In this document: positions 1-53,445 of the stretch, one piece after another
Numbering within the stretch: position 1 is the first letter of the stretch
How the letters are laid out: every line of letters begins with the position of its first letter
Origin: Eledone cirrhosa
Taxonomy: Eukaryota
Reading direction: 5' to 3'
Assembly: GCA_964016885.1 (NCBI GenBank)
Contig: CAXHJY010001341.1
Coordinates: forward strand, 1-53,445
Length of the DNA: 53,445 nt
The notes under the pieces: model-generated
Seen by the model: only the letters and a program-made list of their open reading frames with translations
Told to the model about the DNA's origin: nothing
Databases searched by the model: none
Made by a program: the position numbers and the translations under genes

Positions 1-3000
1 TGTTGGTTCTGTTGTTGTTGGTAGTGTTGGTTCTGTTGTTGTTGGTAGTGTTGGTTCTGTTGTTGTTGGTAGTGTTGGTTCTGTTGTTGTTGGTAGTGTT
101 GGTTCTGTTGTTGTTGTTGGTAGTGTTGGTTCTGTTGTTGTTGGTAGTGTTGGTTCTGTTGTTGTTGTTGGTAGTGTTGGTTCTGTCGTTGTTTTTAGTG
201 TTGGTTCTGTTGTTGTTGGTAGTGTTGGTTCTGTTGTTGTTGGTAGTGTTGGTTCTGTTGTTGTTGGTAGTGTTAGTTCTGTTGTTGTTGGTAGTGTTGG
301 TTCTGCTGTTGTTGTTGATAGTGTTGGTTCTGTTGTTGTTGGTAGTGTTGGTTCTGTTGTTGTTGGTAGTGTTGGTTCTGTTGTTGTTGGTAGTGTTGGT
401 TCTGTTGTTGTTGTTGGTAGTGTTGGTTCTGTTGTTGTTGGTAGTGTAGGTTCTGTTGTTGTTGTTGGTAGTGTTGGTTCTGTTGTTGTTGGTAGTGTTG
501 GTTCTGTTGTTGTTGGTAGTGTTGGTTCTGTTGTTGTTGTTGTTGGTAGTGTTGGTTCTGTTGTTGTTGGTAGTGTTGGTTCTGTTGTTGTTGGTAGTGT
601 TGGTTCTGTTGTTGTTGGTAGTAATGGTTCTATTGTTGTTGGTAGTGTTGGTTCTGTTGTTGTTGTTGGTAGTGTTGGTTCTGTTGTTGTTGGTAGTGTT
701 GGTTCTGTTGTTGTTGTTGGTAGTGTTGGTTCTGTTGTTGTTGGTAGTGTTGGTTCTGTTGTTGTTGTTGGTAGTGTTTGTTCTGTTGTTGTAGGTAGTG
801 TTGGTTCTGTTGTTGTTGGTAGTGTAGGTTCTGTTGTTGTTGATAGTGTTGGTTCTGTTGTTGTTGGTAGTGTTGGTTCTGTTGTTGGTAGTATACGTTC
901 TGTTGTTGTTGTTGGTAGTGTTGGTTCTGTTGTTGTTGGTAGTGTAGGTTCTGTTGTTGTTGTTGGTAGTGTTGGTTCTGTTGTTGTTGGTAGTGTAGGT
1001 TCTGTTGTTGTTGGTAGGATTGGTTCTGTTGTTGTTGGTAGTGTTGGTTCTGTTGTTTGTAGTGTTGGTTCTGTTGTTGTTGGTAGTGTAGGTTCTATTG
1101 TTGTTGTTGGTAGTGTTGGTTCTGTTGTTGTTGGTAGTGTTGGCTCTGTTGTTGTTGGTAGTGTTGGTTCTGTTGTTGTTGGTAGTGTTGGTTCTGTTGT
1201 TGTTGTTGGTAGTGTTGGTTCTGTTGTTGTTGGTAGTGTAGGTTCTGTTGTTTTTGTTGGTAGTGTTGGTTCTGTTGTTGTTGGTAGTGTTGGTTCTGTT
1301 GTTGTTGGTAGTGTTGGTTCTGTTGTTGTTGTTGGTAGTGTTGGTTCGGTTGTTGTTGGTAGTGTTGGTTCTGTTGTTGTTGGTAGTGTTGGTTCTGTTG
1401 TTGTTGTTGGTAGTGTTGGTTCGGTTGTTGTTGGTAGTGTTGGTTCTGTTGTTGTTGGTAGTGTTGGTTCTGTTGTTGTTGTTGGTAGTGTTGGTTCTGT
1501 TGTTGTTGGGAGTGTTGGTTCTGTTGTTGTTGGTAGTGTAGGTTCTGTTGTTGTTGTTGGTAGTGTTGGTTCTGTTGTTGTTGGTAGTGTTGGTTCTGTT
1601 GTTGTTGTTGATAGTGTTGGTTCTGTTGTTGTTGGTAGTGTTGGTTCTGTTGTTGTTGGTAGTGTAGGTTCTGTTGTTGTTGGTAGTGTTGGTTCTGTTG
1701 TTGTTGGTAGTGTTGGTTCTGTTGTTGTTGGTAGTGCTGCCTCTGTTGTTGGTGTTGGTAGTGTTGGTTCTGTTGTTGTTGGTAGTGTTGGTTCTGTTGT
1801 TGTTGGTAGTGTTGGTTCTGTTGTTGTTGGTAGTGTTGGTTCTGTTGTTGTTGGTAGTGTAGGTTCTGTTGTTGTTGTTGGTAGTGTTGGTTCTGTTGTT
1901 GTTGGTAGTGTAGGTTCTGTTGTTGTTGTTGGTAGTGTTGGTTCTGTTGTTGTTGGTAGTGTTGGTTCTGTTGTTGTTGGTAGTGTAGGTTCTGTTGTTG
2001 TTGGTAGTGTAGGTTCTGTTGTTGTTTTTGGTAGTGTTGGTTCTGTTGTTGTTGGTAGTGTTGGTTCTGTTGTTGTTGGTAGTGTTGGTTCTGTTGTTGT
2101 TGGTAGTGTTGGTTCTGTTGTTGTTGGTAGTGTTGGTTCTGTTGTTGTTGTTGGTAGTGTTGGTTCTGTTGTTGTTGGTAGTGTTGGTTCTGTTGTTGTT
2201 GTTGGTAGTGTTGGTTCTGTCGTTGTTTTTAGTGTTGGTTCTGTTGTTGTTGGTAGTGTTGGTTCTGTTGTTGTTGGTAGTGTTGGTTCTGTTGTTGTTG
2301 GTAGTGTTGGTTCTGTTGTTGTTGGTAGTGTTGGTTCTGCTGTTGTTGTTGATAGTGTTGGTTCTGTTGTTGTTGGTAGTGTTGGTTCTGTTGTTGTTGG
2401 TAGTGTTGGTTCTGTTGTTGTTGGTAGTGTTGGTTCTGTTGTTGTTATTGGTAGTGTTGGTTCTGTTGTTGTTGGTAGTGTAGGTTCTGTTGTTGTTGTT
2501 GGTAGTGTTGGTTCTGTTGTTGTTGGTAGTGTTGGTTCTGTTGTTGTTGGTAGTGTTGGTTCTGTTGTTGTTGTTGTTGGTAGTGTTGGTTCTGTTGTTG
2601 TTGGTAGTGTTGGTTCTGTTGTTGTTGGTAGTGTTGGTTCTGTTGTTGTTGGTAGTGATGGTTCTATTGTTGTTGGTAGTGTTGGTTCTGTTGTTGTTGT
2701 TGGTAGTGTTGGTTCTGTTGTTGTTGGTAGTGTTGGTTCTGTTGTTGTTGTTGGTAGTGTTGGTTCTGTTGTTGTTGGTAGTGTTGGTTCTGTTGTTGTT
2801 GTTGGTAGTGTTTGTTCTGTTGTTGTAGGTAGTGTTGGTTCTGTTGTTGTTGGTAGTGTAGGTTCTGTTGTTGTTGATAGTGTTGGTTCTGTTGTTGTTG
2901 GTAGTGTTGGTTCTGTTGTTGGTAGCATACGTTCTGTTGTTGTTGTTGGTAGTGTTGGTTCTGTTGTTGTTGGTAGTGTAGGTTCTGTTGTTGTTGTTGG

Positions 3001-3960
3001 TAGTGTTGGTTCTGTTGTTGTTGGTAGTGTAGGTTCTGTTGTTGTTGGTAGGATTGGTTCTGTTGTTGTTGGTAGTGTTGGTTCTGTTGTTTGTAGTGTT
3101 GGTTCTGTTGTTGTTGGTAGTGTAGGTTCTATTGTTGTTGTTGGTAGTGTTGGTTCTGTTGTTGTTGGTAGTGTTGGTTCTGTTGTTGTTGGTAGTGTTG
3201 GTTCTGTTGTTGTTGGTAGTGTTGGTTCTGTTGTTGTTGGTAGTGTTGGTTCTGTTGTTGTTGTTGGTAGTGTTGGTTCTGTTGTTGTTGGTAGTGTAGG
3301 TTCTGTTGTTTTTGTTGGTAGTGTTGGTTCTGTTGTTGTTGGTAGTGTTGGTTCTGTTGTTGTTGGTAGTGTTGGTTCTGTTGTTGTTGTTGGTAGTGTT
3401 GGTTCGGTTGTTGTTGGTAGTGTTGGTTCTGTTGTTGTTGGTAGTGTTGGTTCTGTTGTTGTTGTTGGTAGTGTTGGTTCGGTTGTTGTTGGTAGTGTTG
3501 GTTCTGTTGTTGTTGGTAGTGTTGGTTCTGTTGTTGTTGTTGGTAGTGTTGGTTCTGTTGTTGTTGGGAGTGTTGGTTCTGTTGTTGTTGGTAGTGTAGG
3601 TTCTGTTGTTGTTGTTGGTAGTGTTGGTTCTGTTGTTGTTGGTAGTGTTGGTTCTGTTGTTGTTGGTAGTGTTGGTTCTGTTGTTGTTGTTGATAGTGTT
3701 GGTTCTGTTGTTGTTGGTAGTGTTGGTTCTGTTGTTGTTGGTAGTGTAGGTTCTGTTGTTGTTGGTAGTGTTGGTTCTGTTGTTGTTGGTAGTATTGGTT
3801 CTGTTGTTGTTGGTAGTGCTGCCTCTGTTGTTGGTGTTGGTAGTGTTGGTTCTGTTGTTGTTGGTAGTGTTGGTTCTGTTGTTGTTGGTAGTGTTGGTTC
3901 TGTTGTTGTTGGTAGTGTTGGTTCTGTTGTTGTTGGTAGTGTAGGTTCTGTTGTTGTTGT
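1..3960. repeat. Higher-order tandem duplication, period ~2034-2082 bp
   Basis: Rare variants recur at offset 2034 (gtcgttgttttt, c at 187/2221; tatacg/catacg at 892/2926). ORF-track pairs 456/2490, 1248/3306, 1674/3756. Boundaries approximate. Confidence 0.85.
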
Positions 3961-36900: not shown

Positions 36901-39900
36901 TGGTAGTGTAGTGGTTGTTGTTGGTATTGTAGTGGTGGTTGTTGGTAGTGAAGTGGTGGTTGTTGGTAGTCTTGTGGTTGTTGTTGGTAGTGTAGTGTTG
37001 GTTGTTGGATGTGTAGTGGTGGTTGTTGGTTGCATAGTGTTTGTTGGTAGTGTAGTGGTTGTTGTTGGTAGTGTAGTGGTTGTTGGTAGTGTAGTGGTTG
37101 TTGTTGGTAATGTAGTGGTGGTTGTTGGTAGTGTAGTGGTTGTTGTTGGTAGTGTAGTGGTTGTTGTTGGTATTGTAGTGGTGGTTGTTGGTAGTGTAAT
37201 GGTGGTTGTTGGTAGTGTAGTGGTTGTTGTTGGTAGTGTAGTGGTTGTTGTTGATAGTGTAGTGGTGGTTGTTGGTAGTGTAGTGGTTGTTGTTGGTTGT
37301 GTAGTGGTGGTTGTTGGTTGTGTAGTGTTTGTTGTTAGTGTAGTGGTTGTTGTTGGTATTGTAGTGTTGGTAGTTGGTAGTGTAGTGGTCGTTGTTGGTA
37401 GTGTAGTGGTTGTTGTTGGTAGTGTTAGTGTTGTAGTGGTTGTTGTTGGTAGTGTAGTGGTTGTTGTTGTTTGTGTAGTGGTTGTTGTTGTAGTGGAGTG
37501 GGTGTTGCTGTTGGTAGTGTAGTGGTTGTTGTTGGTAGTGTAGCGGTTGTTGTTGGTAGTGTAGTGGTTGTTGTTGGTAGTGTAGTGGTGGTTGTTGGTA
37601 ATGTAGTGGTTGTTGTTGGTAGTGTAGTGGTTGTTGTTGGTTGTGTAGTGGTTGTTGCTGGTAGTGTAGTGGTTGTTGTTGGTAGTGTAGTGGTGGTTGT
37701 TGGTAATGTAGTGGTTGTTGTTGGTAGTGTAGTGGTTGTTGTTGGTTGTGTAGTGGTTGTTGCTGGTAGTGTAGTGGTTGTTGTTGGTAGTGTAGTGGTG
37801 GTTGTTGGTAATGTAGTGGTTGTTGTTGGTAGTGTAGTGGTTGTTGTTGGTTGTGTAGTGGTGGTTGTTGGTAATGTAGTGGTTGTTGTTGGTAGTGTAG
37901 TGGTTGTTGTTGGTAGTGTAGTGGTGGTTGTTGGTAATGTAGTGGTTGTTGTTGGTAGTGTAGTGGTTGTTGTTGGTTGTGTATGTTGGTAATGTAGTGG
38001 TTGTTGTTGGTAGTGTAGTGGTTGTTGTTGGTTGTGTAGTGGTTGTTGCTGGTAGTGTAGTGGTTGTTGTTGGTTGTGTAGTGGTTGTTGCTGGTAGTGT
38101 AGTGGTTGTTGTTGGTTGTGTAGTGGTTGTTGTTGGTAGTGTAGTGGTTGTTGTTGGTAGTGTAGTGGTTGTTGTTGGTAGTGTAGTGGTTGTTGTTGAT
38201 AGTGTAGTGGTTGTTGTTGGTAGTGTAGTGGTTGTTGTTGGTTGTGTAGTGGTTGTTGCTGGTAGTGTAGTGGTTGTTGTTGGTAGTGTAGTGGTTGTTG
38301 TTGGTAGTGTAGTGGTTGTTGTTGGTAGTGTAGTGGTTGTTGTTGGTAGTGTAGTGGTTGTTGTTGGTAGTGTAGAGGTTGTTGTTGGTAGTGTAGTGGT
38401 TGTTGTTGGTAGTGTAGTGGTTGTTGTTGGTAGTGTAGTGGTTGTTGTTGGTAGTGTAGAGGTTGTTGTTGGTAGTGTAGTGGTTGTTGTTGGTAGTGTA
38501 GTGGTTGTTGTTGGTAGGTTAGTGGTTGTTGTTGGTAGTGTAGTGGTTGTTGTTGGTAGTGTAGTGGTTGTTGTTGGTAGTGTAGTGGTTGTTGTTGGTA
38601 GTGTAGAGGTTGTTGTTGGTAGTGTAGTGGTTGTTGTTGGTAGTGTAGTGGTTGTTGCTGGTAGTGTAGTGGTTGTTGTTTTTTGTGTAGTGGTTGTTGC
38701 TGGTAGTGTAGTGGTTGTTGTTGGTAGTGTAGTGGTTGTTGTTGGCAGTGTAGTGGTTGTTGTTAGTAGTGTAGTGGTTGTTGTTAGTAGTGTAGTAGTT
38801 GTTGTTGGTAGTGTAGTGGTTGTTGTTGGTTGTGTAGTGGTTGTTGCTGGTAGTGTAGTGGTTGTTGTTGGTAGTGTAGTGGTTGTTGTTGGTAGTGTAG
38901 TGGTTGTTGTTGGTAGTGTAGTGGTTGTTGTTGGTAGTGTAGTGGTTGTTGTTGGTAGTGTAGTGGTTGTTGTTGGTAGTGTAGTGGTTGTTGTTGGTAG
39001 TGTAGAGGTTGTTGTTGGTAGTGTAGTGGTTGTTGTTGGTAGTGTAGTGGTTGTTGCTGGTAGTGTAGTGGTTGTTGTTTGTTGTGTAGTGGTTGTTGCT
39101 GGTAGTGTAGTGGTTGTTGTTGGTAGTGTAGTGGTTGTTGTTAGTAGTGTAGTGGTTGTTGTTAGTAGTGTAGTGGTTGTTGTTGGTAGTGTAGTGGTTG
39201 TTGTTGGTTGTGTAGTGGTTGTTGCTGGTAGTGTAGTGGTTGTTGTTGGTAGTGTAGTGGTTGTTGTTGGTAGTGTAGTGGTTGTTGTTGGTAGTGTAGT
39301 GGTTGTTGTTGGTAGTGTAGTGGTTGTTGTTGGTAGTGTAGTGGTTGTTGTTGGTAGTGTAGTGGTTGTTGCTGGTAGTGTAGTGGTTGTTGTTTGTTGT
39401 GTAGTGGTTGTTGCTGGTAGTGTAGTGGTTGTTGTTGGTAGTGTAGTGGTTGTTGTTGGTAGTGTAGTGGTTGTTGTTAGTAGTGTAGTGGTTGTTGTTG
39501 GTAGTGTAGTGGTTGTTGTTGGTAGTGTAGTGGTTGTTGTTGGTAGTGTAGTGGTTGTTGTTGGTAGTGTAGAGGTTGTTGTTGGTAGTGTAGTGGTTGT
39601 TGTTGGTAGTGTAGTGGTTGTTGTTGGTAGTGTAGCGGTTGTTGTTGGTAGTGTAGTGGCTGTTGTTGGTAGTGTAGTGGTTGTTGTTGGTAGTGTAGTT
39701 GTTGTTGTTGATTGTGTAGTGGTTGTTGCTTGTAGTGTAGTGGTTGTTGTTGGTAGTGTAGTGGTTGTTGTTGGTAGTGTAGTGGTTGTTGTTGGTAGTG
39801 TAGTGGTTGTTGTTGGTAGTGTAGTGGCTGTTGTTGGTAGTGTAGTGGTTGTTGTTGGTAGTGTAGTGGTGGTTGTTGGTTGTGTAGTGGTTCTTGCTGG

Positions 39901-42900
39901 TAGTGTAGTGGTTGTTGTTGGTTGTGTAGTGGTTGTTGTTGGTAGTGTAGTGGTTGTTGTTGGTAGTGTAGTGGTTGTTGTTGGTAGTGTAGTGGTTGTT
40001 GTTGGTAGTGTAGTGGTTGTTGTTGGTAGTGTAGTGGTTGTTGTTGGTAGTGTAGTGGTTGTTGTTGGTAGTGTAGTGGTGGTTGTTGTTGGTAGTGTAG
40101 TGGTTGTTGTTGGTAGTGTAGTGGTTGTTGTTGGTAGTGTAGTGGTTGTTGTTGGTAGTGTAGTGGTTGTTGTTGGTAGTGTAGTGCGTGTTGTTGGTAG
40201 TGTAATGGTTGTTGTTGGTAGTGTAGTGGTGGTTGTTGTTGGTAGTGTAGTGGTTGTTGTTGGTAGTGTAGTGGTTGTTGTTGGTAGTGTAGTGGTTGTT
40301 GTTGGTAGTGTAGTGGTTGTTGTTGGTAGTGTAGTGGCTGTTGTTGGTAGGGTAGTGGTGGTTGTTGTTGGTAGTGTAGTGGTTGTTGTTGGTAGTGTAG
40401 CAGTGGTTGTTGTTGGTAGTGTAGTGGTTGTTGTTGTTTGTGTAGTGGTTGTTGTTGATAGTGGAGCGGTGGTTGCTGTTGGTAGTGTAGTGGTTGTTGT
40501 TGGTAGTGTAGCGGTTGTTGTTGGTAGTGTAGTGGTTGTTGTTGGTAGTGTAGTGGTGGTTGTTGGTAATGTAGTGGTTGTTGTTGGTAGTGTAGTGGTT
40601 GTTGTTGGTTGTGTAGTGGTTGTTGCTGGTAGTGTAGTGGTTGTTGTTGGTAGTGTAGTGGTGGTTGTTGGTAATGTAGTGGTTGTTGTTGGTAGTGTAG
40701 TGGTTGTTGTTGGTTGTGTAGTGGTTGTTGCTGGTAGTTTAGTGGTTGTTGTTGGTAGTGTAGTGGTGGTTGTTGGTAATGTAGTGGTTGTTGTTGGTAG
40801 TGTAGTGGTTGTTGTTGGTTGTGTAGTGGTGGTTGTTGGTAATGTAGTGGTTGTTGTTGGTAGTGTAGTGGTTGTTGTTGGTAGTGTAGTGGTGGTTGTT
40901 GGTAATGTAGTGGTTGTTGTTGGTAGTGTAGTGGTTGTTGTTGGTAGTGTAGTGGTTGTTGCTGGTAGTGTAGTGGTTGTTGTTGGTTGTGTAGTGGTTG
41001 TTGCTGGTAGTGTAGTGGTTGTTGTTGGTTGTGTAGTGGTTGTTGTTGGTAGTGTAGTGGTTGTTGTTGGTAGTGTAGTGGTTGTTGTTGGTAGTGTAGT
41101 GGTTGTTGTTGATAGTGTAGTGGTTGTTGTTGGTAGTGTAGTGGTTGTTGTTGGTTGTGTAGTGGTTGTTGCTGGTAGTGTAGTGGTTGTTGTTGGTAGT
41201 GTAGTGGTTGTTGTTGGTAGTGTAGTGGTTGTTGTTGGTAGTGTAGTGGTTGTTGTTGGTAGTGTAGTGGTTGTTGTTGGTAGTGTAGAGGTTGTTGTTG
41301 GTAGTGTAGTGGTTGTTGTTGGTAGTGTAGTGGTTGTTGTTGGTAGTGTATTGGTTGTTGTTGGTAGTGTAGTGGTTGTTGTTGGTAGTGTAGAGGTTGT
41401 TGTTGGTAGTGTAGTGGTTGTTGTTGGTAGTGTAGTGGTTGTTGTTGGTAGGTTAGTGGTTGTTGTTGGTAGTGTAGTGGTTGTTGTTGGTAGTGTAGTG
41501 GTTGTTGTTGGTAGTGTAGTGGTTGGTGTTGGTAGTGCAGTGGTTGTTGTTGGTAGTGTAGTGGTTGTTGTTGGTAGTGTAGTGGTGGTTGTTGGTAGTG
41601 TAGCGGTTGTTGTTGGTAGTGTAGTGGTTGTTGTTGGTTGTGTAGTGGTGGTTGTTGGTTGTGTAGTGTTTGTTGTTAGTGTAGTGGTTGTTGTTGGTAG
41701 TGTAGTAGTTGTTGTTGGTAGTGTAGTGGTTGTTGTTGGTTGTGTAGTGGTTGTTGCTGGTAGTGTAGTGGTTGTTGTTGGTAGTGTAGTGGTTGTTGTT
41801 GGTAGTGTAGTGGTTGTTGTTGGTAGTGTAGTGGTTGTTGTTGGTAGTGTAGTGGTTGTTGTTGGTAGTGTAGTGGTTGTTGTTGGTAGTGTAGTGGTTG
41901 TTGTTGGTAGTGTAGAGGTTGTTGTTGGTAGTGTAGTGGTTGTTGTTGGTAGTGTAGTGGTTGTTGCTGGTAGTGTAGTGGTTGTTGTTTGTTGTGTAGT
42001 GGTTGTTGCTGGTAGTGTAGTGGTTGTTGTTGGTAGTGTAGTGGTTGTTGTTAGTAGTGTAGTGGTTGTTGTTAGTAGTGTAGTGGTTGTTGTTGGTAGT
42101 GTAGTGGTTGTTGTTGGTTGTGTAGTGGTTGTTGCTGGTAGTGTAGTGGTTGTTGTTGGTAGTGTAGTGGTTGTTGTTGGTAGTGTAGTGGTTGTTGTTG
42201 GTAGTGTAGTGGTTGTTGTTGGTAGTGTAGTGGTTGTTGTTGGTAGTGTAGTGGTTGTTGTTGGTAGTGTAGTGGTTGTTGCTGGTAGTGTAGTGGTTGT
42301 TGTTTGTTGTGTAGTGGTTGTTGCTGGTAGTGTAGTGGTTGTTGTTGGTAGTGTAGTGGTTGTTGTTGGTAGTGTAGTGGTTGTTGTTAGTAGTGTAGTG
42401 GTTGTTGTTGGTAGTGTAGTGGTTGTTGTTGGTAGTGTAGTGGTTGTTGTTGGTAGTGTAGTGGTTGTTGTTGGTAGTGTAGAGGTTGTTGTTGGTAGTG
42501 TAGTGGTTGTTGTTGGTAGTGTAGTGGTTGTTGTTGGTAGTGTAGCGGTTGTTGTTGGTAGTGTAGTGGCTGTTGTTGGTAGTGTAGTGGTTGTTGTTGG
42601 TAGTGTAGTTGTTGTTGTTGATTGTGTAGTGGTTGTTGCTTGTAGTGTAGTGGTTGTTGTTGGTAGTGTAGTGGTTGTTGTTGGTAGTGTAGTGGTTGTT
42701 GTTGGTAGTGTAGTGGTTGTTGTTGGTAGTGTAGTGGCTGTTGTTGGTAGTGTAGTGGTTGTTGTTGGTAGTGTAGTGGTGGTTGTTGGTTGTGTAGTGG
42801 TTCTTGCTGGTAGTGTAGTGGTTGTTGTTGGTTGTGTAGTGGTTGTTGTTGGTAGTGTAGTGGTTGTTGTTGGTAGTGTAGTGGTTGTTGTTGGTAGTGT

Positions 42901-45900
42901 AGTGGTTGTTGTTGGTAGTGTAGTGGTTGTTGTTGGTAGTGTAGTGGTTGTTGTTGGTAGTGTAGTGGTTGTTGTTGGTAGTGTAGTGGTGGTTGTTGTT
43001 GGTAGTGTAGTGGTTGTTGTTGGTAGTGTAGTGGTTGTTGTTGGTAGTGTAGTGGTTGTTGTTGGTAGTGTAGTGGTTGTTGTTGGTAGTGTAGTGCGTG
43101 TTGTTGGTAGTGTAATGGTTGTTGTTGGTAGTGTAGTGGTGGTTGTTGTTGGTAGTGTAGTGGTTGTTGTTGGTAGTGTAGTGGTTGTTGTTGGTAGTGT
43201 AGTGGTTGTTGTTGGTAGTGTAGTGGTTGTTGTTGGTAGTGTAGTGGCTGTTGTTGGTAGGGTAGTGGTGGTTGTTGTTGGTAGTGTAGTGGTTGTTGTT
43301 GGTAGTGTAGTGGTGGTTGTTGTTGGTAGTGTAGTGGCTGTTGTTGGTAGTGTAGTGGTGGTTGTTGTTGGTAGTGTAGTGGTTGTTGTTGGTAGTGTAG
43401 TGGTTGTTGTTGGTATTGTAGTGGTTGTTGTTGGTAGTGTAGTGGTTGTTGTTGGTAGTGTAGTGGTTGTTGTTGGTAGTGTAGTAGTTGTTGTTGGTAG
43501 CGTAGTGGTTGTTGTTGGTTGTGTAGTGGTTGTTGTTGGTAGTGTAGTAGTTGTTGTTGGTAGTGTAGTGGTTGTTGTAGGTAGTGTAGTGGTTGTTGTT
43601 GGTAGTGTAGTGGTTGTTGTTGGTAGCGTAGTGGTTGTTGTTGGTTGTGTAGTGGTTGTTGTTGGTAGTGTAGTGGTTGTTGTTGGTAGTGTAGTGGTTG
43701 TTGGAAGTGTAGTGGTTGTTGTTGGTAGTGTAGTGGTTGTTGGTAGTGTAGTGGTTGTTGGTAGTGTAGTGGTTGTTGTTGGTAGTGTAGTGGTTGTTGG
43801 TAGTGTAGTGGTTCTTGTTGGTAGTGTAGTGGTTGTTGTTGGTAGTGTAGTGGTTGTTGGTAGTGTAGTGGTTGTTGTTGGTAGTGTAGAGGTTGTTGTT
43901 GGTAGTGTAGTGGTTGTTGTTGTTAGTGAAGTGGTTGTTGCTGGTAGTGTAGTGGTTGTTGTTTGTTGTGTAGTGGTTGTTGCTGGTAGTGTAGTGGTTG
44001 TTGTTGGTAGTGTAGTGGTTGTTGTTTGTAGTGTTCTGGTTGTTGTTGGTAGTGTAGTGGTTGTTGTTGGTAGTGTAGTGGTTGTTGTTGGTAGTGTAGT
44101 GGTTGTTGTTGGTAGTGTAGTGGTTGTTGTTGGTAGTGTAGAGGTTGTTGTTGGTAGTGTAGTGGTTGTTGTTGGTAGTGTAGTGGTTGTTGTTGGTAGT
44201 GTAGCGGTTGTTGTTGGTAGTGTAGTGGTTGTTGTTGGTAGTGTAGTGGTTGTTGTTGGTAGTGTAGAGGTTGTTGTTGGTAGTGTAGTGGTTGTTGTTG
44301 TTAGTGAAGTGGTTGTTGCTGGTAGTGTAGTGGTTGTTGTTTGTTGTGTAGTGGTTGTTGCTGGTAGTGTAGTGGTTGTTGTTGGTAGTGTAGTGGTTGT
44401 TGTTTGTAGTGTTCTGGTTGTTGTTGGTAGTGTAGTGGTTGTTGTTGGTAGTGTAGTGGTTGTTGTTGGTAGTGTAGTGGTTGTTGTTGGTAGTGTAGTG
44501 GTTGTTGTTGGTAGTGTAGAGGTTGTTGTTGGTAGTGTAGTGGTTGTTGTTGGTAGTGTAGTGGTTGTTGTTGGTAGTGTAGCGGTTGTTGTTGGTAGTG
44601 TAGTGGTTGTTGTTGGTAGTGTAGTGGTTGTTGTTGGTAGTGTAGTTGTTGTTGTTGATTGTGTAGTGGTTGTTGCTTGTAGTGTAGTGGTTGTTGTTGG
44701 TAGTGTAGTGGTTGTTGTTGGTAGTGTAGTGGTTGTTGTTGGTAGTGAAGTGGCTGTTGTTGGTAGTGTAGTGGTTGTTGTTGGTAGTGTAGTGGTTGTT
44801 GTTGGTAGTGTAGTGGTTGTTGTTGGTAGTGTAGTGGTTGTTGTTGGTAGTGTAGTGGTTGTTGTTGGTAGTGTAGTGGTGGTTGTTGTTGGTAGTGTAG
44901 TGGTTGTTGTTGGTAGTGTAGTGGTTGTTGTTGGTAGTGTAGTGGTTGTTGTTGGTAGTGTAGTGGTTGTTGTTGGTAGTGTAGTGCGTGTTGTTGGTAG
45001 TGTAATGGTTGTTGTTGGTAGTGTAGTGGTGGTTGTTGTTGGTAGTGTAGTGGTTGTTGTTGGTAGTGTAGTGGTTGTTGTTGGTAGTGTAGTGGTTGTT
45101 GTTGGTAGTGTAGTGGTTGTTGTAGGTAGGGTAGTGGTGGTTGTTGTTGGTAGTGTAGTGGTTGTTGTTGGTAGTGTAGTGGTGGTTGTTGTTGGTAGTG
45201 TAGTGGCTGTTGTTGGTAGTGTAGTGGTGGTTGTTGTTGGTAGTGTAGTGGTTGTTGTTGGTAGTGTAGTGGTTGTTGTTGGTAGTGTAGTGGTTGTTGT
45301 TGGTAGTGTAGTGGTTGTTGTTGGTAGTGTAGTGGTTGCTGTTGGTAGCGTAGTGGTTGTTGTTGGTTGTGTAGTGGTTGTTGTTGGTAGTGTAGTAGTT
45401 GTTGTTGGTAGTGTAGTGGTTGTTGTTGGTAATGTAGTGGTTGTTGTTGGTAGTGTAGTGGTTGTTGTTGGTAGCGTAGTGGTTGTTGTTGGTTGTGTAG
45501 TGGTTGTTGTTGGTAGTGTAGTGGTTGTTGTTGGTAGTGTAGTGGTTGTTGGAAGTGTAGTGGTTGTTGTTGGTAGTGTAGTGGTTGTTGGTAGTGTAGT
45601 GGTTGTTGGTAGTGTAGTGGTTGTTGTTGGTAGTGTAGTGGTTGTTGGTAGTGTAGTGGTTGTTGTTGGTAGTGTAGTGGTTGTTGTTGGTAGTGTAGTG
45701 GTTGTTGTTGGTAGTGTAGAGGTTGTTGTTGGTAGTGTAGTGGTTGTTGTTGTTAGTGAAGTGGTTGTTGCTGGTAGTGTAGTGGTTGTTGTTTGTTGTG
45801 TAGTGGTTGTTGCTGGTAGTGTAGTGGTTGTTGTTGGTAGTGTAGTGGTTGTTGTTTGTAGTGTTCTGGTTGTTGTTGGTAGTGTAGTGGTTGTTGTTGG

Positions 45901-48900
45901 TAGTGTAGTGGTTGTTGTTGGTAGTGTACTGGTTGTTGTTGGTAGTGTACTGGTTGTTGTTGGTAGTGTAGTGGTTGTTGTTCGTTGTGTAGTGGTTGTT
46001 GCTGGTAGTGTAGTGGTTGGTGTTGGTAGTGCAGTGGTTGTTGTTGGTAGTGTAGTGGTTGTTGTTGGTAGTGTAGTGGTGGTTGTTGGTAGTGCATTGG
46101 TTGTTGTTGGTAGTGTAGTGGTTGTTGTTGGTTGTGTAGTGGTGGTTGTTGGTTGTGTAGTGGTTGTTGGTAGTGTAGTGGTTGTTGTTGGTAGTGTAGT
46201 GGTTGTTGTTGGTAGTGTAGTGTTTGTTGTTGGTAGTGTAGTGGTTGTTGTTGGTAGTGTAGCGGTTGTTGTTGGTAGTGTAGTGGTTGTTGTTGGTTGT
46301 GTAGTGGTGGTTGTTGGTTGTGTAGTGTTTGTTGTTAGTGTAGTGGTTGTTGTTGGTAGTGTAGTGGTTGTTGTTGGTAGTGTAGTGTTTGTTGTTGGTA
46401 GTGTAGTGGTTGTTGTTGGTAGTGTAGCGGTTGTTGTTGGTAGTGTACTGGTTGTTGTTGGTAGTGTAGTGGTTGTTGTTGGTTGTGTAGTGGTTGATGC
46501 TGGTAGTGTAGTGGTTGTTGTTGGTAGTGTAGTGGTGGTTGTTGGTAGTGTAGTGGTGGTTGTTGGTAGTGTAGTGGTTGTTGTTGGTAGTGTAGTCGTT
46601 GTTGTTGGTTGTGTAGTGGTGGTTGTTGGTTGTGTAGTGTTTGTTGGTAGTGTAGTGGTTGTTGTTGGTTGTGTAGTGTTTGTTGCTGGTAGTGTAGTGG
46701 TTGTTGTTGGTAGTGTAGTGGTTGTTGTTGGTAGTGTAGTGGTTGTTGTTGGTTGTGTAGTTGTTGTTGTTGGTTGTGTAGTGTTTGTTGGTAGTGTAGT
46801 GGTTGTTGTTGGTAGTGTAGTGGTGGTTGTTGGTAGTGTAGTGGTTGTTGTTGATTGTGTAGTGGTTGTTGCTTGTAGTGTAGTGGTTGTTGTTGGTAGT
46901 GTAGTGGTTGTTGTTGGTAGTGTAGTGGTTGTTGTTGGTAGTGTAGTGGTTGTTGTTGGTAGTGTAGTGGCTGTTGTTGGTAGTGTAGTGGTTGTTGTTG
47001 GTAGTGTAGTGGTTGTTGTTGGTAGTGTAGTGGTTGTTGTTGTTAGTGAAGTGGTTGTTGCTGGTAGTGTAGTGGTTGTTGTTTGTTGTGTAGTGGTTGT
47101 TGCTGGTAGTGTAGTGGTTGTTGTTGGTAGTGTAGTGGTTGTTGTTTGTAGTGTTCTGGTTGTTGTTGGTAGTGTAGTGGTTGTTGTTGGTAGTGTAGTG
47201 GTTGTTGTTGGTAGTGTACTGGTTGTTGTTGGTAGTGTAGTGGTTGTTGTTCGTTGTGTAGTGGTTGTTGCTGGTAGTGTAGTGGTTGGTGTTGGTAGTG
47301 CAGTGGTTGTTGTTGGTAGTGTAGTGGTTGTTGTTGGTAGTGTAGTGGTGGTTGTTGGTAGTGCAGTGGTTGTTGTTGGTAGTGTAGTGGTTGTTGTTGG
47401 TTGTGTAGTGGTGGTTGTTGGTTGTGTAGTGTTTGTTGGTAGTGTAGTGGTTGTTGTTGGTAGTGTAGTGGTTGTTGTTGGTAGTGTAGTGTTTGTTGTT
47501 GGTAGTGTAGTGGTTGTTGTTGGTAGTGTAGCGGTTGTTGTTGGTAGTGTAGTGGTTGTTGTTGGTTGTGTAGTGGTGGTTGTTGGTTGTGTAGTGTTTG
47601 TTGTTAATGTAGTGGTTGTTGTTGGTAGTGTAGTGGTTGTTGTTGGTAGTGTAGTGTTTGTTGTTGGTAGTGTAGTGGTTGTTGTTGGTAGTGTAGCGGT
47701 TGTTGTTGGTAGTGTACTGGTTGTTGTTGGTAGTGTAGTGGTTGTTGTTGGTTGTGTAGTGGTTGATGCTGGTAGTGTAGTGGTTGTTGTTGGTAGTGTA
47801 GTGGTGGTTGTTGGTAGTGTAGTGGTGGTTGTTGGTAGTGTAGTGGTTGTTGTTGGTAGTGTAGTTGTTGTTGTTGGTTGTGTAGTGGTGGTTGTTGGTT
47901 GTGTAGTGTTTGTTGGTAGTGTAGTGGTTGTTGTTGGTTGTGTAGTGTTTGTTGCTGGTAGTGTAGTGGTTGTTGTTGGTAGTGTAGTGGTTGTTGTTGG
48001 TAGTGTAGTGGTTGTTGTTGGTTGTGTAGTTGTTGTTGTTGGTTGTGTAGTGTTTGTTGGTAGTGTAGTGGTTGTTGTTGGTAGTGTAGTGGTGGTTGTT
48101 GGTAGTGTAGTGGTTGTTGTTGGTAGTGTAGTGGTTGTTGTTGGTTGTGTAGTCGTGGTTGTTGGTTGTGTAATGTTTGTTGGTAGTGTAGTGGTTGTTG
48201 TTGGTAGTGTAGTGGTGGTTGTTGGTAGTGTAGTGGTTGTTGCTGGTAGTGTAGTGGTTGTTGTTGGTAGTGTAGTGGTTGTTGTTGGTAGTTTAGTGGT
48301 TGTTGTTGGTTGTGTAGTGGTTCTTGTTGGTAGTGTAGTGGTTGTTGTTGGTAGTGTAGTGGTTGTTGGTAGTGTAGTGGTTGTTGTTGGTAGTGTAGTG
48401 GTTGTTGGTAGTGTAGTGGTTGTTGTTGGTAGTGTAGTGGTGGTTGTTGGTAGTGTAGTGGTTGTTGTTGGTAGTGTAGTGGCTGTTGTTGGTAGTGTAG
48501 AGGTGGTTGTTGTTGGTAGTGTAGTGGTTGTTGTTGGTAGTGTAGTGGTTGTTGTTGGTAGTGTAGTGGTTGTTGTTGGTAGTGTAGTGGTTGTTGTTGG
48601 TAGTGTAGTGGTTGTTGTTGGTAGTGTAGAGGTTGTTGTTGGTAGTGTAGTGGTTGTTGTTGGTAGTGAAGTGGTTGTTGCTGGTAGTGTAGTGGTGGTT
48701 GTTGGTAGTGTAGTGGTTGTTGTTGGTAGTGTAGTGGCTGTTGTTGGTAGTGTAGTGGTGGTTGTTGTTGGTAGTGTAGTGGTTGTTGTTTGTAGTGTAG
48801 TGGTTGTTGTTGGTAGTGTAGTGGTTGTTGTTGGTAGTGTAGCGGTTGTTGTTGGTAGTGTACTGGTTGTTGTTGGTAGTGTACTGGTTGTTGTTGGTAG

Positions 48901-51900
48901 TGTAGTGGTTGTTGTTCGTTGTGTAGTGGTTGTTGCTGGTAGTGTAGTGGTTGGTGTTGGTAGTGCAGTGGTGGTTGTTGGTAGTGTAGTGGTGGTTGTT
49001 GGTAGTGCAGTGGTTGTTGTTGGTAGTGTAGTGGTTGTTGTTGGTTGTGTAGTGGTGGTTGTTGGTTGTGTAGTGTTTGTTGTTGGTAGTGTAGCGGTTG
49101 TTGTTGGTAGTGTAGTGTTTGTTGTTGGTAGTGTAGTGTTTGTTGTTGGTAGTGTAGTGGTGGTTGTTGTTGGTAGTGTAGTGGTTGTTGTTGGTAGTGT
49201 AGTGGTTGTTGTTGGTAGTGTAGTGGTTGTTGTTGGTAGTGTAGTGGTTGTTGTAGGTAGGGTAGTGGTGGTTGTTGTTGGTAGTGTAGTGGTTGTTGTT
49301 GGTAGTGTAGTGGTGGTTGTTGTTGGTAGTGTAGTGGCTGTTGTTGGTAGTGTAGTGGTGGTTGTTGTTGGTAGTGTAGTGGTTGTTGTTGGTAGTGTAG
49401 TGGTTGTTGTTGGTAGTGTAGTGGTTGTTGTTGGTAGTGTAGTGGTTGTTGTTGGTAGCGTAGTGGTTGTTGTTGGTTGTGTAGTGGTCGTTGTTGGTAG
49501 TGTAGTAGTTGTTGTTGGTAGTGTAGTGGTTGTTGTTTGTAATGTAGTGGTTGTTGTTGGTAGTGTAGTGGTTGTTGTTGGTAGCGTAGTGGTTGTTGTT
49601 GGTTGTGTAGTGGTTGTTGTTGGTAGTGTAGTGGTTGTTGTTGGTAGTGTAGTGGTTGTTGGAAGTGTAGTGGTTGTTGTTGGTAGTGTAGTGGTTGTTG
49701 GTAGTGTAGTGGTTGTTGGTAGTGTAGTGGTTGTTGTTGGTAGTGTAGTGGTTGTTGGTAGTGTAGTGGTTGTTGTTGGTAGTGTAGTGGTTGTTGTTGG
49801 TAGTGTAGTGGTTGTTGTTGGTAGTGTAGAGGTTGTTGTTGGTAGTGTAGTGGTTGTTGTTGTTAGTGAAGTGGTTGTTGTTGGTAGTGTAGTGGTTGTT
49901 GTTTGTTGTGTAGTGGTTGTTGCTGGTAGTGTAGTGGTTGTTGTTGGTAGTGTAGTGGTTGTTGTTTGTAGTGTTCTGGTAGTTGTTGGTAGTGTAGTGG
50001 TTGTTGTTGGTAGTGTAGTGGTTGTTGTTGGTAGTGTACTGGTTGTTGTTGGTAGTGTACTGGTTGTTGTTGGTAGTGTAGTGGTTGTTGTTCGTTGTGT
50101 AGTGGTTGTTGCTGGTAGTGTAGTGGTTGGTGTTGGTAGTGCAGTGGTTGTTGTTGGTAGTGTAGTGGTTGTTGTTGGTAGTGTAGTGGTGGTTGTTGGT
50201 AGTGCAGTGGTTGTTGTTGGTAGTGTAGTGGTTGTTGTTGGTTGTGTAGTGGTGGTTGTTGGTTGTGTAGTGTTTGTTGGTAGTGTAGTGGTTGTTGTTG
50301 GTAGTGTAGTGGTTGTTGTTGGTAGTGTAGTGTTTCTTGTTGGTAGTGTAGTGGTTGTTGTTGGTAGTGTAGCGGTTGTTGTTGGTAGTGTAGTGGTTGT
50401 TGTTGGTTGTGTAGTGGTGGTTGTTGGTTGTGTAGTGTTTGTTGTTAGTGTAGTGGTTGTTGTTGGTAGTGTAGTGGTTGTTGTTGGTAGTGTAGTGTTT
50501 GTTGTTGGTAGTGTAGTGGTTGTTGTTGGTAGTGTAGCGGTTGTTGTTGGTAGTGTACTGGTTGTTGTTGGTAGTGTAGTGGTTGTTGTTGGTTGTGTAG
50601 TGGTTGATGCTGGTAGTGTAGTGGTTGTTGTTGGTAGTGTAGTGGTGGTTGTTGGTAGTGTAGTGGTGGTTGTTGGTAGTGTAGTGGTTGTTGTTGGTAG
50701 TGTAGTTGTTGTTGTTGGTTGTGTAGTGGTGGTTGTTGGTTGTGTAGTGTTTGTTGGTAGTGTAGTGGTTGTTGTTGGTTGTGTAGTGGTTGTTGTTGGT
50801 AGTGTAGTGGTGGTTGTTGGTAGTGTAGTGGTTGTTGTTGATTGTGTAGTGGTTGTTGCTTGTAGTGTAGTGGTTGTTGTTGGTAGTGTAGTGGTTGTTG
50901 TTGGTAGTGTAGTGGTTGTTGTTGGTAGTGTAGTGGTTGTTGTTGGTAGTGTAGTGGCTGTTGTTGGTAGTGTAGTGGTTGTTGTTGGTAGTGTAGTGGT
51001 GGTTGTTGGTTGTGTAGTGGTTGTTGCTGGTAGTGTAGTGGTTGTTGTTGGTTGTGTAGTGGTTGTTGCTGGTAGTGTAGTGGTTGTTGTTGGTAGTGTA
51101 GTGGTTGTTGTTGGCTGTGTAGTGGTTGTTGTTGGTAGTGTAGTGGTTGTTGTTGGTAGTGTAGTGGTTGTTGTTGGTAGTGTAGTGGTTGTTGTTGGTA
51201 GTTTAGTGGTTGTTGTTGGTAGTGTAGTGGTGGTTGTTGTTGGTAGTGTAGTGGTTGTTGTTGGTAGTGTAGTGGTTGTTGTTGGTAGTGTAGTGGTTGT
51301 TGTTGGTAGTGTAGTGGTTGTTGTTGGTAGTGTAGTGCGTGTTGTTGGTAGTGTAATGGTTGTTGTTGGTAGTGTAGTGGTGGTTGTTGTTGGTAGTGTA
51401 GTGGTTGTTGTTGGTAGTGTAGTGGTTGTTGTTGGTAGTGTAGTGGTTGTTGTTGGTAGTGTAGTGGTTGCTGTTGGTAGGGTAGTTGTGGTTGTTGTTG
51501 GTAGTGTAGTGGTTGTTGTTGGTAGTGTAGTGGTGGTTGTTGTTGGTAGTGTAGTGGCTGTTGTTGGTAGTGTAGTGGTGGTTGTTGTTGGTAGTGTAGT
51601 GGTTGTTGTTGGTAGTGTAGTGGTTGTTGTTGGTAGTGTAGTGGTTGTTGTTGGTAGTGTAGTGGTTGTTGTTGGTAGTGTAGTGGTTGTTGTTGGTAGC
51701 GTAGTGGTTGTTGTTGGTTGTGTAGTGGTTGTTGTTGGTAGTGTAGTAGTTGTTGTTGGTAGTGTAGTGGTTGTTGTTGGTAATGTAGTGGTTGTTGTTG
51801 GTAGTGTAGTGGTTGTTGTTGGTAGCGTAGTGGTTGTTGTTGGTTGTGTAGTGGTTGTTGTTGGTAGTGTAGTGGTTGTTGTTGGTTGTGTAGTGGTTGT

Positions 51901-53445
51901 TGTTGGTAGTGTAGTGGTTGTTGTTGGTAGTGTAGTGGTTGTTGGTAGTGTAGTGGTTGTTGTTGGTAGTGTAGTGGTTGTTGTTGGTAGTGTAGTGGTT
52001 GTTGTTGGTAGTGTAGAGGTTGTTGTTGGTAGTGTAGTGGTTGTTGTTGTTAGTGAAGTGGTTGTTGCTGGTAGTGTAGTGGTTGTTGTTTGTTGTGTAG
52101 TGGTTGTTGCTGGTAGTGTAGTGGTTGTTGTTGGTAGTGTAGTGGTTGTTGTTTGTAGTGTTCTGGTTGTTGTTGGTAGTGTAGTGGTTGTTGTTGGTAG
52201 TGTAGTGGTTGTTGTTGGTAGTGTACTGGTTGTTGTTGGTAGTGTACTGGTTGTTGTTGGTAGTGTAGTGGTTGTTGTTCGTTGTGTAGTGGTTGTTGCT
52301 GGTAGTGTAGTGGTTGGTGTTGGTAGTGCAGTGGTTGTTGTTGGTAGTGTAGTGGTTGTTGTTGGTAGTGTAGTGGTGGTTGTTGGTAGTGTAGCGGTTG
52401 TTGTTGGTAGTGTAGTGGTTGTTGTTGGTTGTGTAGTGGTGGTTGTTGGTTGTGTAGTGTTTGTTGTTAGTGTAGTGGTTGTTGTTGGTAGTGTAGTGGT
52501 TGTTGTTGGTAGTGTAGTGTTTGTTGTTGGTAGTGTAGTGGTTGTTGTTGGTAGTGTAGCGGTTGTTGTTGGTAGTGTACTGGTTGTTGTTGGTAGTGTA
52601 GTGGTTGTTGTTGGTTGTGTAGTGGTTGATGCTGGTAGTGTAGTGGTTGTTGTTGGTAGTGTAGTGGTGGTTGTTGGTAGTGTAGTGGTGGTTGTTGGTA
52701 GTGTAGTGGTTGTTGTTGGTAGTGTAGTTGTTGTTGTTGGTTGTGTAGTGGTGGTTGTTGGTTGTGTAGTGTTTGTTGGTAGTGTAGTGGTTGTTGTTGG
52801 TTGTGTAGTGTTTGTTGCTGGTAGTGTAGTGGTTGTTGTTGGTAGTGTAGTGGTTGTTGTTGGTAGTGTAGTGGTTGTTGTTGGTTGTGTAGTTGTTGTT
52901 GTTGGTTGTGTAGTGTTTGTTGGTAGTGTAGTGCTTGTTGTTGGTAGTGTAGTGGTGGTTGTTGGTAGTGTAGTGGTTGTTGTTGGTAGTGTAGTGGTTG
53001 TTGTTGGTTGTGTAGTGGTGGTTGTTGGTTGTGTAATGTTTGTTGGTAGTGTAGTGGTTGTTGTTGGTAGTGTAGTGGTGGTTGTTGGTAGTGTAGTGGT
53101 TGTTGCTGGTAGTGTAGTGGTTGTTGTTGGTAGTGTAGTGGTTGTTGTTGGTAGTTTAGTGGTTGTTGTTGGTTGTGTAGTGGTTCTTGTTGGTAGTGTA
53201 GTGGTTGTTGTTGGTAGTGTAGTGGTTGTTGGTAGTGTAGTGGTTGTTGTTGGTAGTGTAGTGGTTGTTGGTAGTGTAGTGGTTGTTGTTGGTAGTGTAG
53301 TGGTGGTTGTTGGTAGTGTAGTGGTTGTTGTTTGTAGTGTAGTGGCTGTTGTTGGTAGTGTAGTGGGGGTTGTTGTTGGTAGTGTAGTGGTTGTTGTTGG
53401 TAGTGTAGTGGTTGTTGTTGGTAGTGTAGTGGTTGTTGTTGGTAG
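1..53445 (-). CDS. Partial CDS (internal fragment, open at both ends) of a giant Thr/Pro-rich mucin-like glycoprotein repeat domain, 17,815 codons
   Basis: The + strand triplets starting at positions 1 mod 3 (tgt/tgg/tag/ttc/agt/ggt) are the reverse complements of ACA/CCA/CTA/GAA/ACT/ACC = T/P/L/E/T/T. A minus-frame stop requires a TAx or CAx codon in the overlapping + frame; the supplied 11,181-aa + ORF shows no Y/H/Q, and by-eye reading of 1-3976 and 37491-53445 found no in-phase tta/cta/tca. Unit-length variants are multiples of 3 (18/21/24/27/30). In-frame ATGs at 37035 and 2928 are internal repeat variants. The mucin-like call rests on composition only. Confidence 0.8.
8650..12020. repeat. 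Higher-order duplication, offset 2136 bp
   Basis: ORF-track pairs 8703/10839, 8892/11028, 9408/11544, 9678/11814; shared variants ggtgcgg, gtcggt, ggtttgg. Boundaries approximate. Confidence 0.85.
13850..20200. repeat. Higher-order duplication, offset 4701 bp, with a nested 963-bp tandem duplication (~14900-16830)
   Basis: gatatttt at 13895/18596; tatacg/tttacg at 15415/20116; ORF pairs 14559/19260 and 15030/19731. Nested: tatacg at 15415/16378; ORF pairs 15030/15993 and 15768/16731. Confidence 0.85.
26190..27490. repeat. Higher-order tandem duplication, period 657 bp
   Basis: gatttt (a at 26331/26988), agcgttgtttct and the double gatggttctatt recur; ORF pair 26532/27189. Confidence 0.85.
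29291..30350 (-). repeat. Short type-B array: 21-bp unit (+ strand ggtagtgtagtggttgttgtt) encoding TTTTTLP; about 50 units
   Basis: ggttct is replaced by gtagtggtt from ~29296 to ~30350. Confidence 0.95.
30351..31560 (-). repeat. Short, more diverged type-A array (TEPTLPTT with TEPTIP and TETTLP variants); about 48-50 units
   Basis: ggttct units resume at ~30361 and end at ~31545; many ggtatt and gtttct variants. Confidence 0.95.
37440..43310. repeat. Higher-order tandem duplication, period ~2.91-2.97 kb
   Basis: gattgtg at 39711/42621, ttcttgctgg at 39891/42801 and gtgcgtg (c at 40187/43097) all at offset 2910; ggtaggttag ~38518/41452; agtggag ~37492/40460. Confidence 0.85.
37491..37983 (-). 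other. Out-of-phase segment bounded by compensating deletions (-1 at ~37490, -8 at ~37983); reads as NNNHYTT repeats in the continuous minus frame
   Basis: Repeat phase shifts by one base in lines 37501-37981 only. Compared with the paralogous copy at 40451 (gttgttgAtagtggag), an a is missing at ~37490; at 37983 gtggtggt is missing from gtgta[gtggtggt]tgttggtaat. Confidence 0.85.
43600..53445. repeat. Mosaic of higher-order duplications in the type-B array (offsets 378, ~1270-1290, 2187, 4110 bp)
   Basis: gttctggt (c at 44036, 44414, 45866, 47156, 49976, 52163); ggaagtg at 45553/49663; gatgc (a at 46497, 47766, 50607, 52629). Confidence 0.8.

Follow-up and report, generated by a model that had tools for sequence, protein, structure and literature searches.

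A 53-kb threonine-rich open frame of Eledone cirrhosa as the probable middle of a giant MUC4-like mucin exon

The window, which is the whole 53,445-bp stretch of Eledone cirrhosa DNA analysed here, is best read as the central part of a single giant coding exon in a mucin gene on contig C8, of MUC4-like type and with a product likely anchored in the membrane (rough probability 0.68). It comprises the entire unplaced contig C1368 of a genome of 2,996 Mb in 1,796 contigs. That it is a real coding mucin exon under selection can be held with high confidence. The kind of gene, a MUC4-like mucin, is known; its size is apparently unreported. A full-text literature search, the coverage of which leaves out most subscription journals, found no report of giant cephalopod mucin exons.

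Reading frame and repeat layout

Six-frame translation gives 0 stops in 17,815 codons for minus-strand frame 1, from one window edge to the other, as an earlier note on this DNA had claimed; the other five frames have 22 to 2,191 stops. The encoded product contains 10,094 Thr (56.7%), 3,363 Pro, 2,120 Leu, 1,196 Glu and 131 Ser, has a mass of 1.856 MDa, and includes no Cys, Trp or Phe anywhere in the 17,815 codons. The estimates in the note (about 10,000 Thr, about 1.8 MDa, no Cys) agree with these counts. The window is one tandem array throughout, with 21-bp TTTTTLP units followed by 24/27-bp TTTEPTLP units. The note gave the order (TTTTTLP, then TEPTLPTT) correctly but overlooked a register slip of ~160 codons. 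The features are listed below.

1..53445, minus strand: 17,815 codons without a stop, neither end closed, probably the middle of a giant phase 1-1 PTS exon
31543..53445, minus strand: block of 21-bp units, TTTTTLP with TTTTTQP and TNTTQP variants (aa 1-7,301)
38787..43310, no strand assigned: recent internal duplication with a 2,910-bp period; 1,614 bp are identical at 38,787 and 41,697
37489..37980, minus strand: compensated frame excursion, two indels ~490 bp apart, ~160 codons of YTTNNNH repeats, no stop
30364..31542, minus strand: first TEPTLPTT island (aa 7,302-7,694)
29281..30363, minus strand: TTTTTLP units resume (aa 7,695-8,055)
1..29280, minus strand: block of 24/27-bp units, TTTEPTLP and TTTTEPTLP (aa 8,056-17,815)

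At the frame excursion, either the frameshift is real and compensated or the consensus has two local errors; the sister copy of the excursion, at a distance of 2,910 bp, is nearly identical and keeps the register. The open frame of the window depends on the two indels (at ~37,980 and ~37,489) being both real or both errors. Pfam scans of window pieces, of the head of the array exon and of the spacer described below gave only a sub-threshold Cornifin match of the composition type.

Probable placement in the scaffold gap of C8

The same array is found on the 60.6-Mb contig C8, from ~46,257,400 to 46,337,200, where it is interrupted by a 200-N gap at 46,297,979-46,298,178; in the genome searches which located it, 40 of 1,360 and 39 of 943 candidates were scored. 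On the minus strand of C8, both the upstream half (U, 13,773 codons) and the downstream half (D, 13,529 codons) are open up to the gap. In U, ~790 non-repetitive Ser/Thr-rich residues come first; the remainder is TTTTTLP repeat, 33 kb before and 5 kb after a unique spacer of ~330 residues, which is at C8:46,304,200-46,303,200. D is TEPTLPTT over its first 34 kb and TTTTTLP over its last 6.5 kb. The switch from TTTTTLP to TEPTLPTT is missing from C8 at the gap. It is present in the window, in the same orientation.

The ends of the window resemble the sequences on either side of the gap. Rare 36-mers pair its first bins with the bin of U that ends at the gap, and its final bins with the first bins of D. 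The first kilobases of block 31543..53445 are closest to the C8 sequence immediately upstream of the gap, and the last kilobases of block 1..29280 have a ~2-kb higher-order repeat in common with the C8 sequence immediately downstream of it. There is no diagonal of rare 36-mers along U or D against the window, and there is no colinearity: chained exact matches of the window span at most 640 bp in U and 850 bp in D. Exact matches reach 302 bp between window and C8 and 1,614 bp within the window. Exact matches of at least 300 bp number one against D and none against U; simulated alleles of D with unit indels have 44, 26 and 13 such matches at 0.3, 0.5 and 1% divergence. One variant motif is found in the window only (5 of 5 matches); a second is found in the window (5 of 7) and in D near the gap (2 of 7).

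Since the window carries the missing repeat switch and is colinear with neither U nor D, it is probably the gap filler, that is, extra sequence that belongs in the C8 gap and would be additive to C8. It has no exact overlap with either gap edge, so more sequence may be missing there. An 824-bp dovetail between the window end and D was rejected, being an inexact overlap with equally good copies elsewhere; subtracting it and a similar one of 1.1 kb from the predicted protein leaves ~46,080 aa. Also rejected, as a copy of the gene, was a look-alike at C24:6.493 Mb; this is a short satellite which changes register at 41 of 43 steps.

The gene around the array

The array exon lies on the minus strand of C8. 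Its acceptor is a pyrimidine tract with AG at C8:46,339,499 (AG/TA, phase 1), and its donor is C/GTAAGT, with the exon end at C8:46,257,389, also in phase 1. A 58-nt coding exon with an ATG at 46,340,439 and a phase-1 GTAAGT donor is located 0.9 kb upstream. Read on into the opening codons of the array exon, it encodes a basic start, a hydrophobic core and a cleavage-like site of small residues (judged by eye), and is likely to specify a signal peptide. The predicted splice joints on the two sides of the array exon are 46,340,382-46,339,499 and 46,257,389-46,256,656.

Downstream of the array there are 27 exons with AG/GT borders and continuous phase (4,524 nt, 1,508 aa). They encode NIDO, AMOP-like, VWD (with GDPH) and C8-3 domains, ~15 EGF-type modules by our own count, and an unclassified juxtamembrane module. 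The Pfam scan took in 24 pieces of the locus. NIDO (PF06119) is over the cut-off in two exons (E 4e-8 and 7e-9), and C8-3_MUC4 (PF23263) is matched at E 4.5e-10. AMOP (PF03782) appears in the expected exon at E 0.03, with 14.9 bits against a cut-off of 25, and only the end of this region aligns with an AMOP-bearing protein. The VWD (PF00094) pieces, which include the GAFGDPH exon, have E 9e-4 and 1.5e-3; each is under the cut-off because the domain is split by introns. EGF-type families match in all ten candidate EGF exons scanned, and in seven of these they are over a cut-off. For five other pieces from downstream, Pfam had either no match or an isolated weak one.

A hydrophobic 21-mer followed by basic residues is encoded at C8:46,122,654-46,122,525, which is likely to be the transmembrane exon. 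Two short exons lead to it tentatively; the links use a weak donor and a 32-bp exon. The gene continues beyond this exon, and no last (tail) exon was found past it. With the window included, the array exon has 76.5% Pro/Thr/Ser over 45,117 codons, no Cys, and a position directly upstream of the NIDO exons. Traits of gel-forming mucins of the MUC2/5AC/5B type (VWD-C8-TIL assemblies at the N terminus, CysD inserts, a cystine knot at the C terminus) were not seen: there is no Cys in the exon, only the 58-nt coding exon precedes it, and a single VWD follows NIDO. The domain order suggests that the gene is likely a MUC4-like (NIDO-AMOP-VWD), membrane-anchored mucin. The PTS mucin domain proposed earlier is thereby linked to coding flanks (signal-like, NIDO, VWD, C8-3, EGF and TM exons). 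These flanks were to be sought in the flanking contig; they exist on C8, but the window itself has none and is linked to them through the scaffold gap.

No GT[AG]AG donor is found inside the 133 kb of repeat. AATAAA words occur nine times in the repeats, three each in U, window and D.

Relatives and conserved exon borders

The C8 exons are colinear with the Octopus bimaculoides mucin-like protein XP_052830075.1 at 59-91% identity (among rows of at least 55%, with array-internal matches left out); one later exon has 52% identity. Relatives in bivalves, gastropods and amphioxus have 25-30% identity. By homology, the host is an octopod-type cephalopod. At the sequence level, database proteins show both borders of the array exon to be conserved. 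The O. bimaculoides protein A0A0L8G4Q7 has a Thr-rich stretch ending in TTPFPRI, then one residue, then LLPFGSS, which is the junction predicted on C8. The UniParc entry P0005 begins at the array-exon acceptor and matches the head of the exon over 263 columns at 46% and over 432 columns at 39%. The mid-exon spacer (287 aa) has no relatives among 1.84 billion representatives; conservation of the array exon is therefore shown for its ends only.

The O. bimaculoides entries XP_052830075.1 and A0A0L8G4Q7 resemble the C8 gene in exon order and in the junction after the Thr-rich exon, and likely represent its ortholog. The models differ in that the Thr-rich exon is missing from them or represented by only 266 aa, and the visible repeat is not that of C8. 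Invertebrate mucin4-like proteins also have the NIDO-AMOP-VWD core, many EGF modules, and sometimes SEA and TM segments; sea anemone proteins are of this core type according to the available text of PMC9080433. Unlike the C8 gene, the database entries are of 1,012-3,071 aa (search range 979-3,115 aa) and none has a giant PTS exon. Mucin-4-like proteins, possible counterparts of the C8 product, are reported from the skin mucus of Octopus vulgaris (available parts of PMC11431876).

Selection on the frame

Composition alone makes stops rare in a sequence of this kind: the coding strand of the window has 7% T, and its antisense frame has only 22 stops and is open for 12,506 codons. Distinct point variants were therefore counted relative to the commoner word from which each derives, within the repeat parts only (head, spacer and shifted block left out) and with strand-symmetric rates. 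In the coding frame of window, U and D together, 0 new stops are observed against ~13 expected (Poisson ~2e-6), and in the window alone 0 against 5.5. Four control frames have 99/100, 36/28, 99/115 and 101/75 stops observed/expected; a fifth, antisense, has 0/2.0, which is too few chances to inform. The stop-depletion probabilities are approximate because array variants are not fully independent. The missense/synonymous ratio is 0.91-0.98, so that both types of change are equally tolerated; a mucin domain that depends on composition should behave in this way. The array also keeps its register: there are no switches among the 1,277 anchors of U or the 1,205 of D, and the two among the 1,748 of the window are those of the compensated pair. 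Many 3-kb bins have hundreds of 36-mers absent from every other bin.

The animal is heterozygous, with five variant sites in 2.2 kb of the array-exon head. Seven variant sites in the C8 head and a stretch of its paralog on C6, taken from Logan contigs, comprise two synonymous and five missense changes and no stops. Of the sequencing runs, X1-X3 are DNA (the intron is covered and there is no spliced joint), and X4-X6 are RAD-seq with almost no cover.

Size and comparison with known systems

C8 alone has 81,911 sequenced exon bases and a predicted protein of at least ~28,900 aa, the tail uncounted. With the window the exon would have 135,356 bp and 45,117 codons (4.69 MDa, 25,751 Thr), and the predicted protein ~46,700 aa, again without the tail. 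The exon is larger than the window which the note considered as a possible single exon: at least 81.9 kb on C8 alone, and probably ~135 kb with the window. The human yardstick of 10-22 kb used earlier is too small. In the accessible part of PMC13345508, MUC12 alleles reach 23,080 aa (with a size range of 55,233 bp, and said to hold the largest human exon) and MUC4 alleles reach 27,843 bp; 53 kb alone is therefore no record.

Human MUC4 has a signal, one large VNTR exon, NIDO, AMOP, VWD, EGF and TM segments, a short tail and GDPH (PMC5039420, PMC13345508, as far as the available text extends); cleavage at GDPH is mentioned in PMC8660890. The C8 gene shares the large exon, NIDO, VWD, EGF modules and GDPH, and has likely signal and TM segments and a weak AMOP match. 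MUC4 differs in its longest allele (27,843 bp versus at least 81.9 kb; PMC13345508), in having three EGF domains, in the partial sources, where the C8 gene has ~15, and in its repeat; that of C8 is of Thr/Pro/Leu/Glu with almost no Ser. The likeness is one of domain architecture. Human MUC12, as described in the same part of PMC13345508, is also a membrane mucin with a single, very large VNTR exon of extreme length variation, but its longest allele is about half the inferred C8 size and it is of the SEA type, not NIDO-AMOP-VWD. The spider glue gene AgSp1 (42,270 coding bp) likewise encodes a giant, repetitive, secreted glycoprotein and needed long reads to be resolved, but has two exons and unrelated terminal domains (available text of PMC6553539). 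In size class the predicted C8 protein is comparable with titin and with PKZILLA-1 (45,212 aa, a 136,071-nt transcript with 17 exons, ~25% larger than titin; 10.1101/2024.01.29.577497, in part). Those two are folded multidomain proteins with many exons and with RNA and peptide support; the C8 mucin, predicted from sequence, has nearly all its length in one disordered exon.

Proposed mechanism

If the window fills the C8 gap, the exon would be ~135 kb and the protein ~46,700 aa. The giant exon would be included whole in the mRNA, aided by repeats that lack a consensus donor. By analogy with known mucins, the chain would be expected to enter the ER and to be cut at GDPH, which would separate a mucin subunit from a membrane subunit, and many of its 25,751 Thr would receive GalNAc-type O-glycans. 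With a length of ~0.25 nm per residue in an extended mucin, the glycosylated chain would be a stretched bottlebrush on the scale of 10 micrometres, acidic in its TEPTLPTT core (~64 kb coding length) and neutral in the TTTTTLP at its ends. Such a bottlebrush could form a glycocalyx or be shed into mucus. Secretion, mucin and membrane subunits, dense O-glycosylation, and barrier and lubrication roles are all part of MUC4 biology as presented in the available text of PMC5039420 and PMC9080433. The exon would grow by unequal duplication of its 21/24/27-bp units and of higher-order blocks of 1.7-4.9 kb, while selection would remove stops and net frameshifts and would hardly constrain amino acids. 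It should be noted that the making of a protein longer than PKZILLA-1 is, on this sequence evidence, a little more doubtful than probable.

Alternative readings

The window could be coding mucin repeat from the other haplotype, which would then be strongly diverged, or could overlap the gap only in part; the exon would then be at least 81.9 kb and no allele would have the summed 135 kb. The window is unplaced and lacks exact overlap with the gap edges, the animal is heterozygous in the exon head, and alleles of mucin VNTRs can differ by tens of kb (available part of PMC13345508). Against this, neither half of C8 is colinear with the window, as the short chains and the allele simulation show, and the two variant motifs are confined to window and C8. 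The window also has 21.9 kb of TTTTTLP without a spacer, versus ~5 kb on C8 between spacer and gap, so that, whichever reading is taken, C8 lacks much of it. Haplotype or partial overlap is accordingly judged unlikely.

The gene may also be expressed mainly without the giant exon, or with part of it, the frame being kept by a minor or tissue-limited isoform; the record protein would then be rare or never made. Skipping would keep the frame because the array exon is phase 1-1, the RefSeq model XP_052830075.1 has no repeat exon (which may be an annotation gap), and each array part has three AATAAA words at which internal polyadenylation could occur. Human MUC4 is said to have a shortened splice form, MUC4/Y, without the repeat exon. 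This course is nonetheless distinctly unlikely: stops are depleted along the whole array, the window alone included, which requires translation through it; the repeats have no consensus donor; and A0A0L8G4Q7 joins a Thr-rich end to NIDO exons. A non-coding satellite, or a length due to assembly inflation on an (ACA)-rich strand that is simply stop-poor, is very improbable and already largely refuted. The low T content, the long antisense frame, the missense/synonymous ratio near 1 and exact internal duplicates of up to 1.6 kb are all compatible with it, but stop depletion is confined to one frame, the C24 satellite changes register as the array does not, and protein is conserved at both ends of the array exon. 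It is further opposed by the many bins with private 36-mers and by the C6 paralog described below, the frame of which is mostly unique, with 5.5 kb of it in one contig without indels in runs X1 and X2. The giant MUC4-like exon is thus the preferred reading.

Paralogs and implications

A genome search with NIDO gave 12 matches among 22 candidates, and one with the VWD exon 6 among 17. Upstream of the NIDO gene at C6:95.91 Mb there is a frame of 42,948 codons without a stop or an N. The candidate exon (95,772,572-95,901,322; 128,751 bp, gap-free, phase 1-1) precedes NIDO and a GDPH exon. It has 0 stops versus 1,271-4,357 in the other frames, and 75% of its 30-mers are unique; composition cannot account for such an open frame, nor could an ordinary intron be concealed in it. 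Its product has 17.5% Thr, 11.9% Ser, 859 N-glycosylation sequons and a mass of 4.72 MDa. In runs X1 and X2 (possibly from the source animal), 5.5 kb of the exon are found in one single-depth contig without indels. Pfam scans of 13 tiles of this frame gave only repeat- and coiled-coil-type matches, which are read as composition effects. On C4, a paralog has a Thr-rich exon of ~5.7 kb, also phase 1-1. Since a single mucin exon before NIDO is found on C8, C6 and C4, it is a family trait here, and in at least two genes this exon has grown to ~100 kb or more.

The floor sizes (81.9 kb on C8; 128.7 kb, gap-free, on C6) exceed the largest coding exons in the literature compared (MUC12 and AgSp1, in the parts available). 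With the window as gap filler, the C8 protein would be longer than PKZILLA-1 (45,212 aa in the available text). Only tentatively can it be proposed that octopods have MUC4-like 'gigamucins', with ~130-kb exons that are spliced whole and translated (a Thr bottlebrush of 46,700 aa and 4.9 MDa for C8; a mosaic mucin of 43,000-plus aa for C6). These would be the longest proteins and coding exons reported, and two independent expansions, one a pure VNTR (C8) and one mostly unique (C6), would have stopped near equal size. Such equality would hint that exon definition, mRNA export or ER translocation sets a ceiling. Limits of exon size, message handling and secretion are directly testable in one animal, with the 5.7-kb exon of the C4 paralog as a control. 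The C8 mucin would likely be a main polymer of the octopus glycocalyx or mucus. Cephalopod annotations drop ~97% of such genes.

No giant frame is found within 40 kb upstream of the NIDO matches on C7, C6:100.7 Mb, C21 and C4:259 Mb, or in the 100 kb that precede the tandem paralog (C8:46.02 Mb); in each case larger introns could hide one. Three NIDO matches are located on C28.

Other MUC4-like and NIDO genes

Among the record-size candidates, the cleaner one is arguably a putative exon on contig C6 of the genome assembly (G000):
G000:C6:95,772,572-95,901,322, plus strand, candidate exon of a second MUC4-like gene (loci L083-L092, L062-L064)
It runs for 128,751 bp (42,916 codons) without gap or stop, and is a mosaic of unique Thr/Ser/Ile-rich sequence and dozens of differing short arrays. 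Its predicted product has Cys in the initial 1,000 residues and, as judged by eye, furin-like basic motifs.

Further relatives lie on C8 and C4.
G000:C8:46,025,100-46,000,600, minus strand, NIDO-AMOP-like-VWD(GDPH)-EGF paralog (L048-L050)
G000:C4:350,251,8xx-350,246,0xx, minus strand, two MUC4-like genes in tandem (L109-L110)
The C8 paralog is a tandem copy, downstream of the giant gene at a distance of ~100 kb; its Thr-rich exon is apparently only short. The upstream C4 member has a Thr/Asp-rich repeat exon of ordinary size (5.7 kb, phase 1-1), which serves as a small natural control.

Additional NIDO genes are located as follows.
G000:C7:6,241,000-6,337,000, gene(s)
G000:C21:8,557,000, gene
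G000:C6:100,712,000, gene
G000:C4:259,021,000, gene
G000:C28:97.6-97.7 Mb, genes
No giant frame was found within 40 kb upstream at the first four locations (0/4).

Repeats and a frameshift pair

Two other repeats and one disturbance of frame were noted.
G000:C24:6,492,900-6,495,000, short satellite resembling the TTTTTLP unit (L043-L044)
G000:C8:46,347,800-46,352,760, 5-kb minisatellite (L019-L020)
Window 37,489-37,980, compensated frameshift pair
The C24 satellite is 81-89% like the 21-bp TTTTTLP unit, but at 41 of its 43 steps it does not stay in the triplet register. The minisatellite, 8 kb upstream of the giant gene's signal exon, is likely non-coding; all three plus frames are stop-free over 400-760 codons. 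The frameshift pair sits within a recent duplication of 2,910 bp and is either a local assembly error or a real event.
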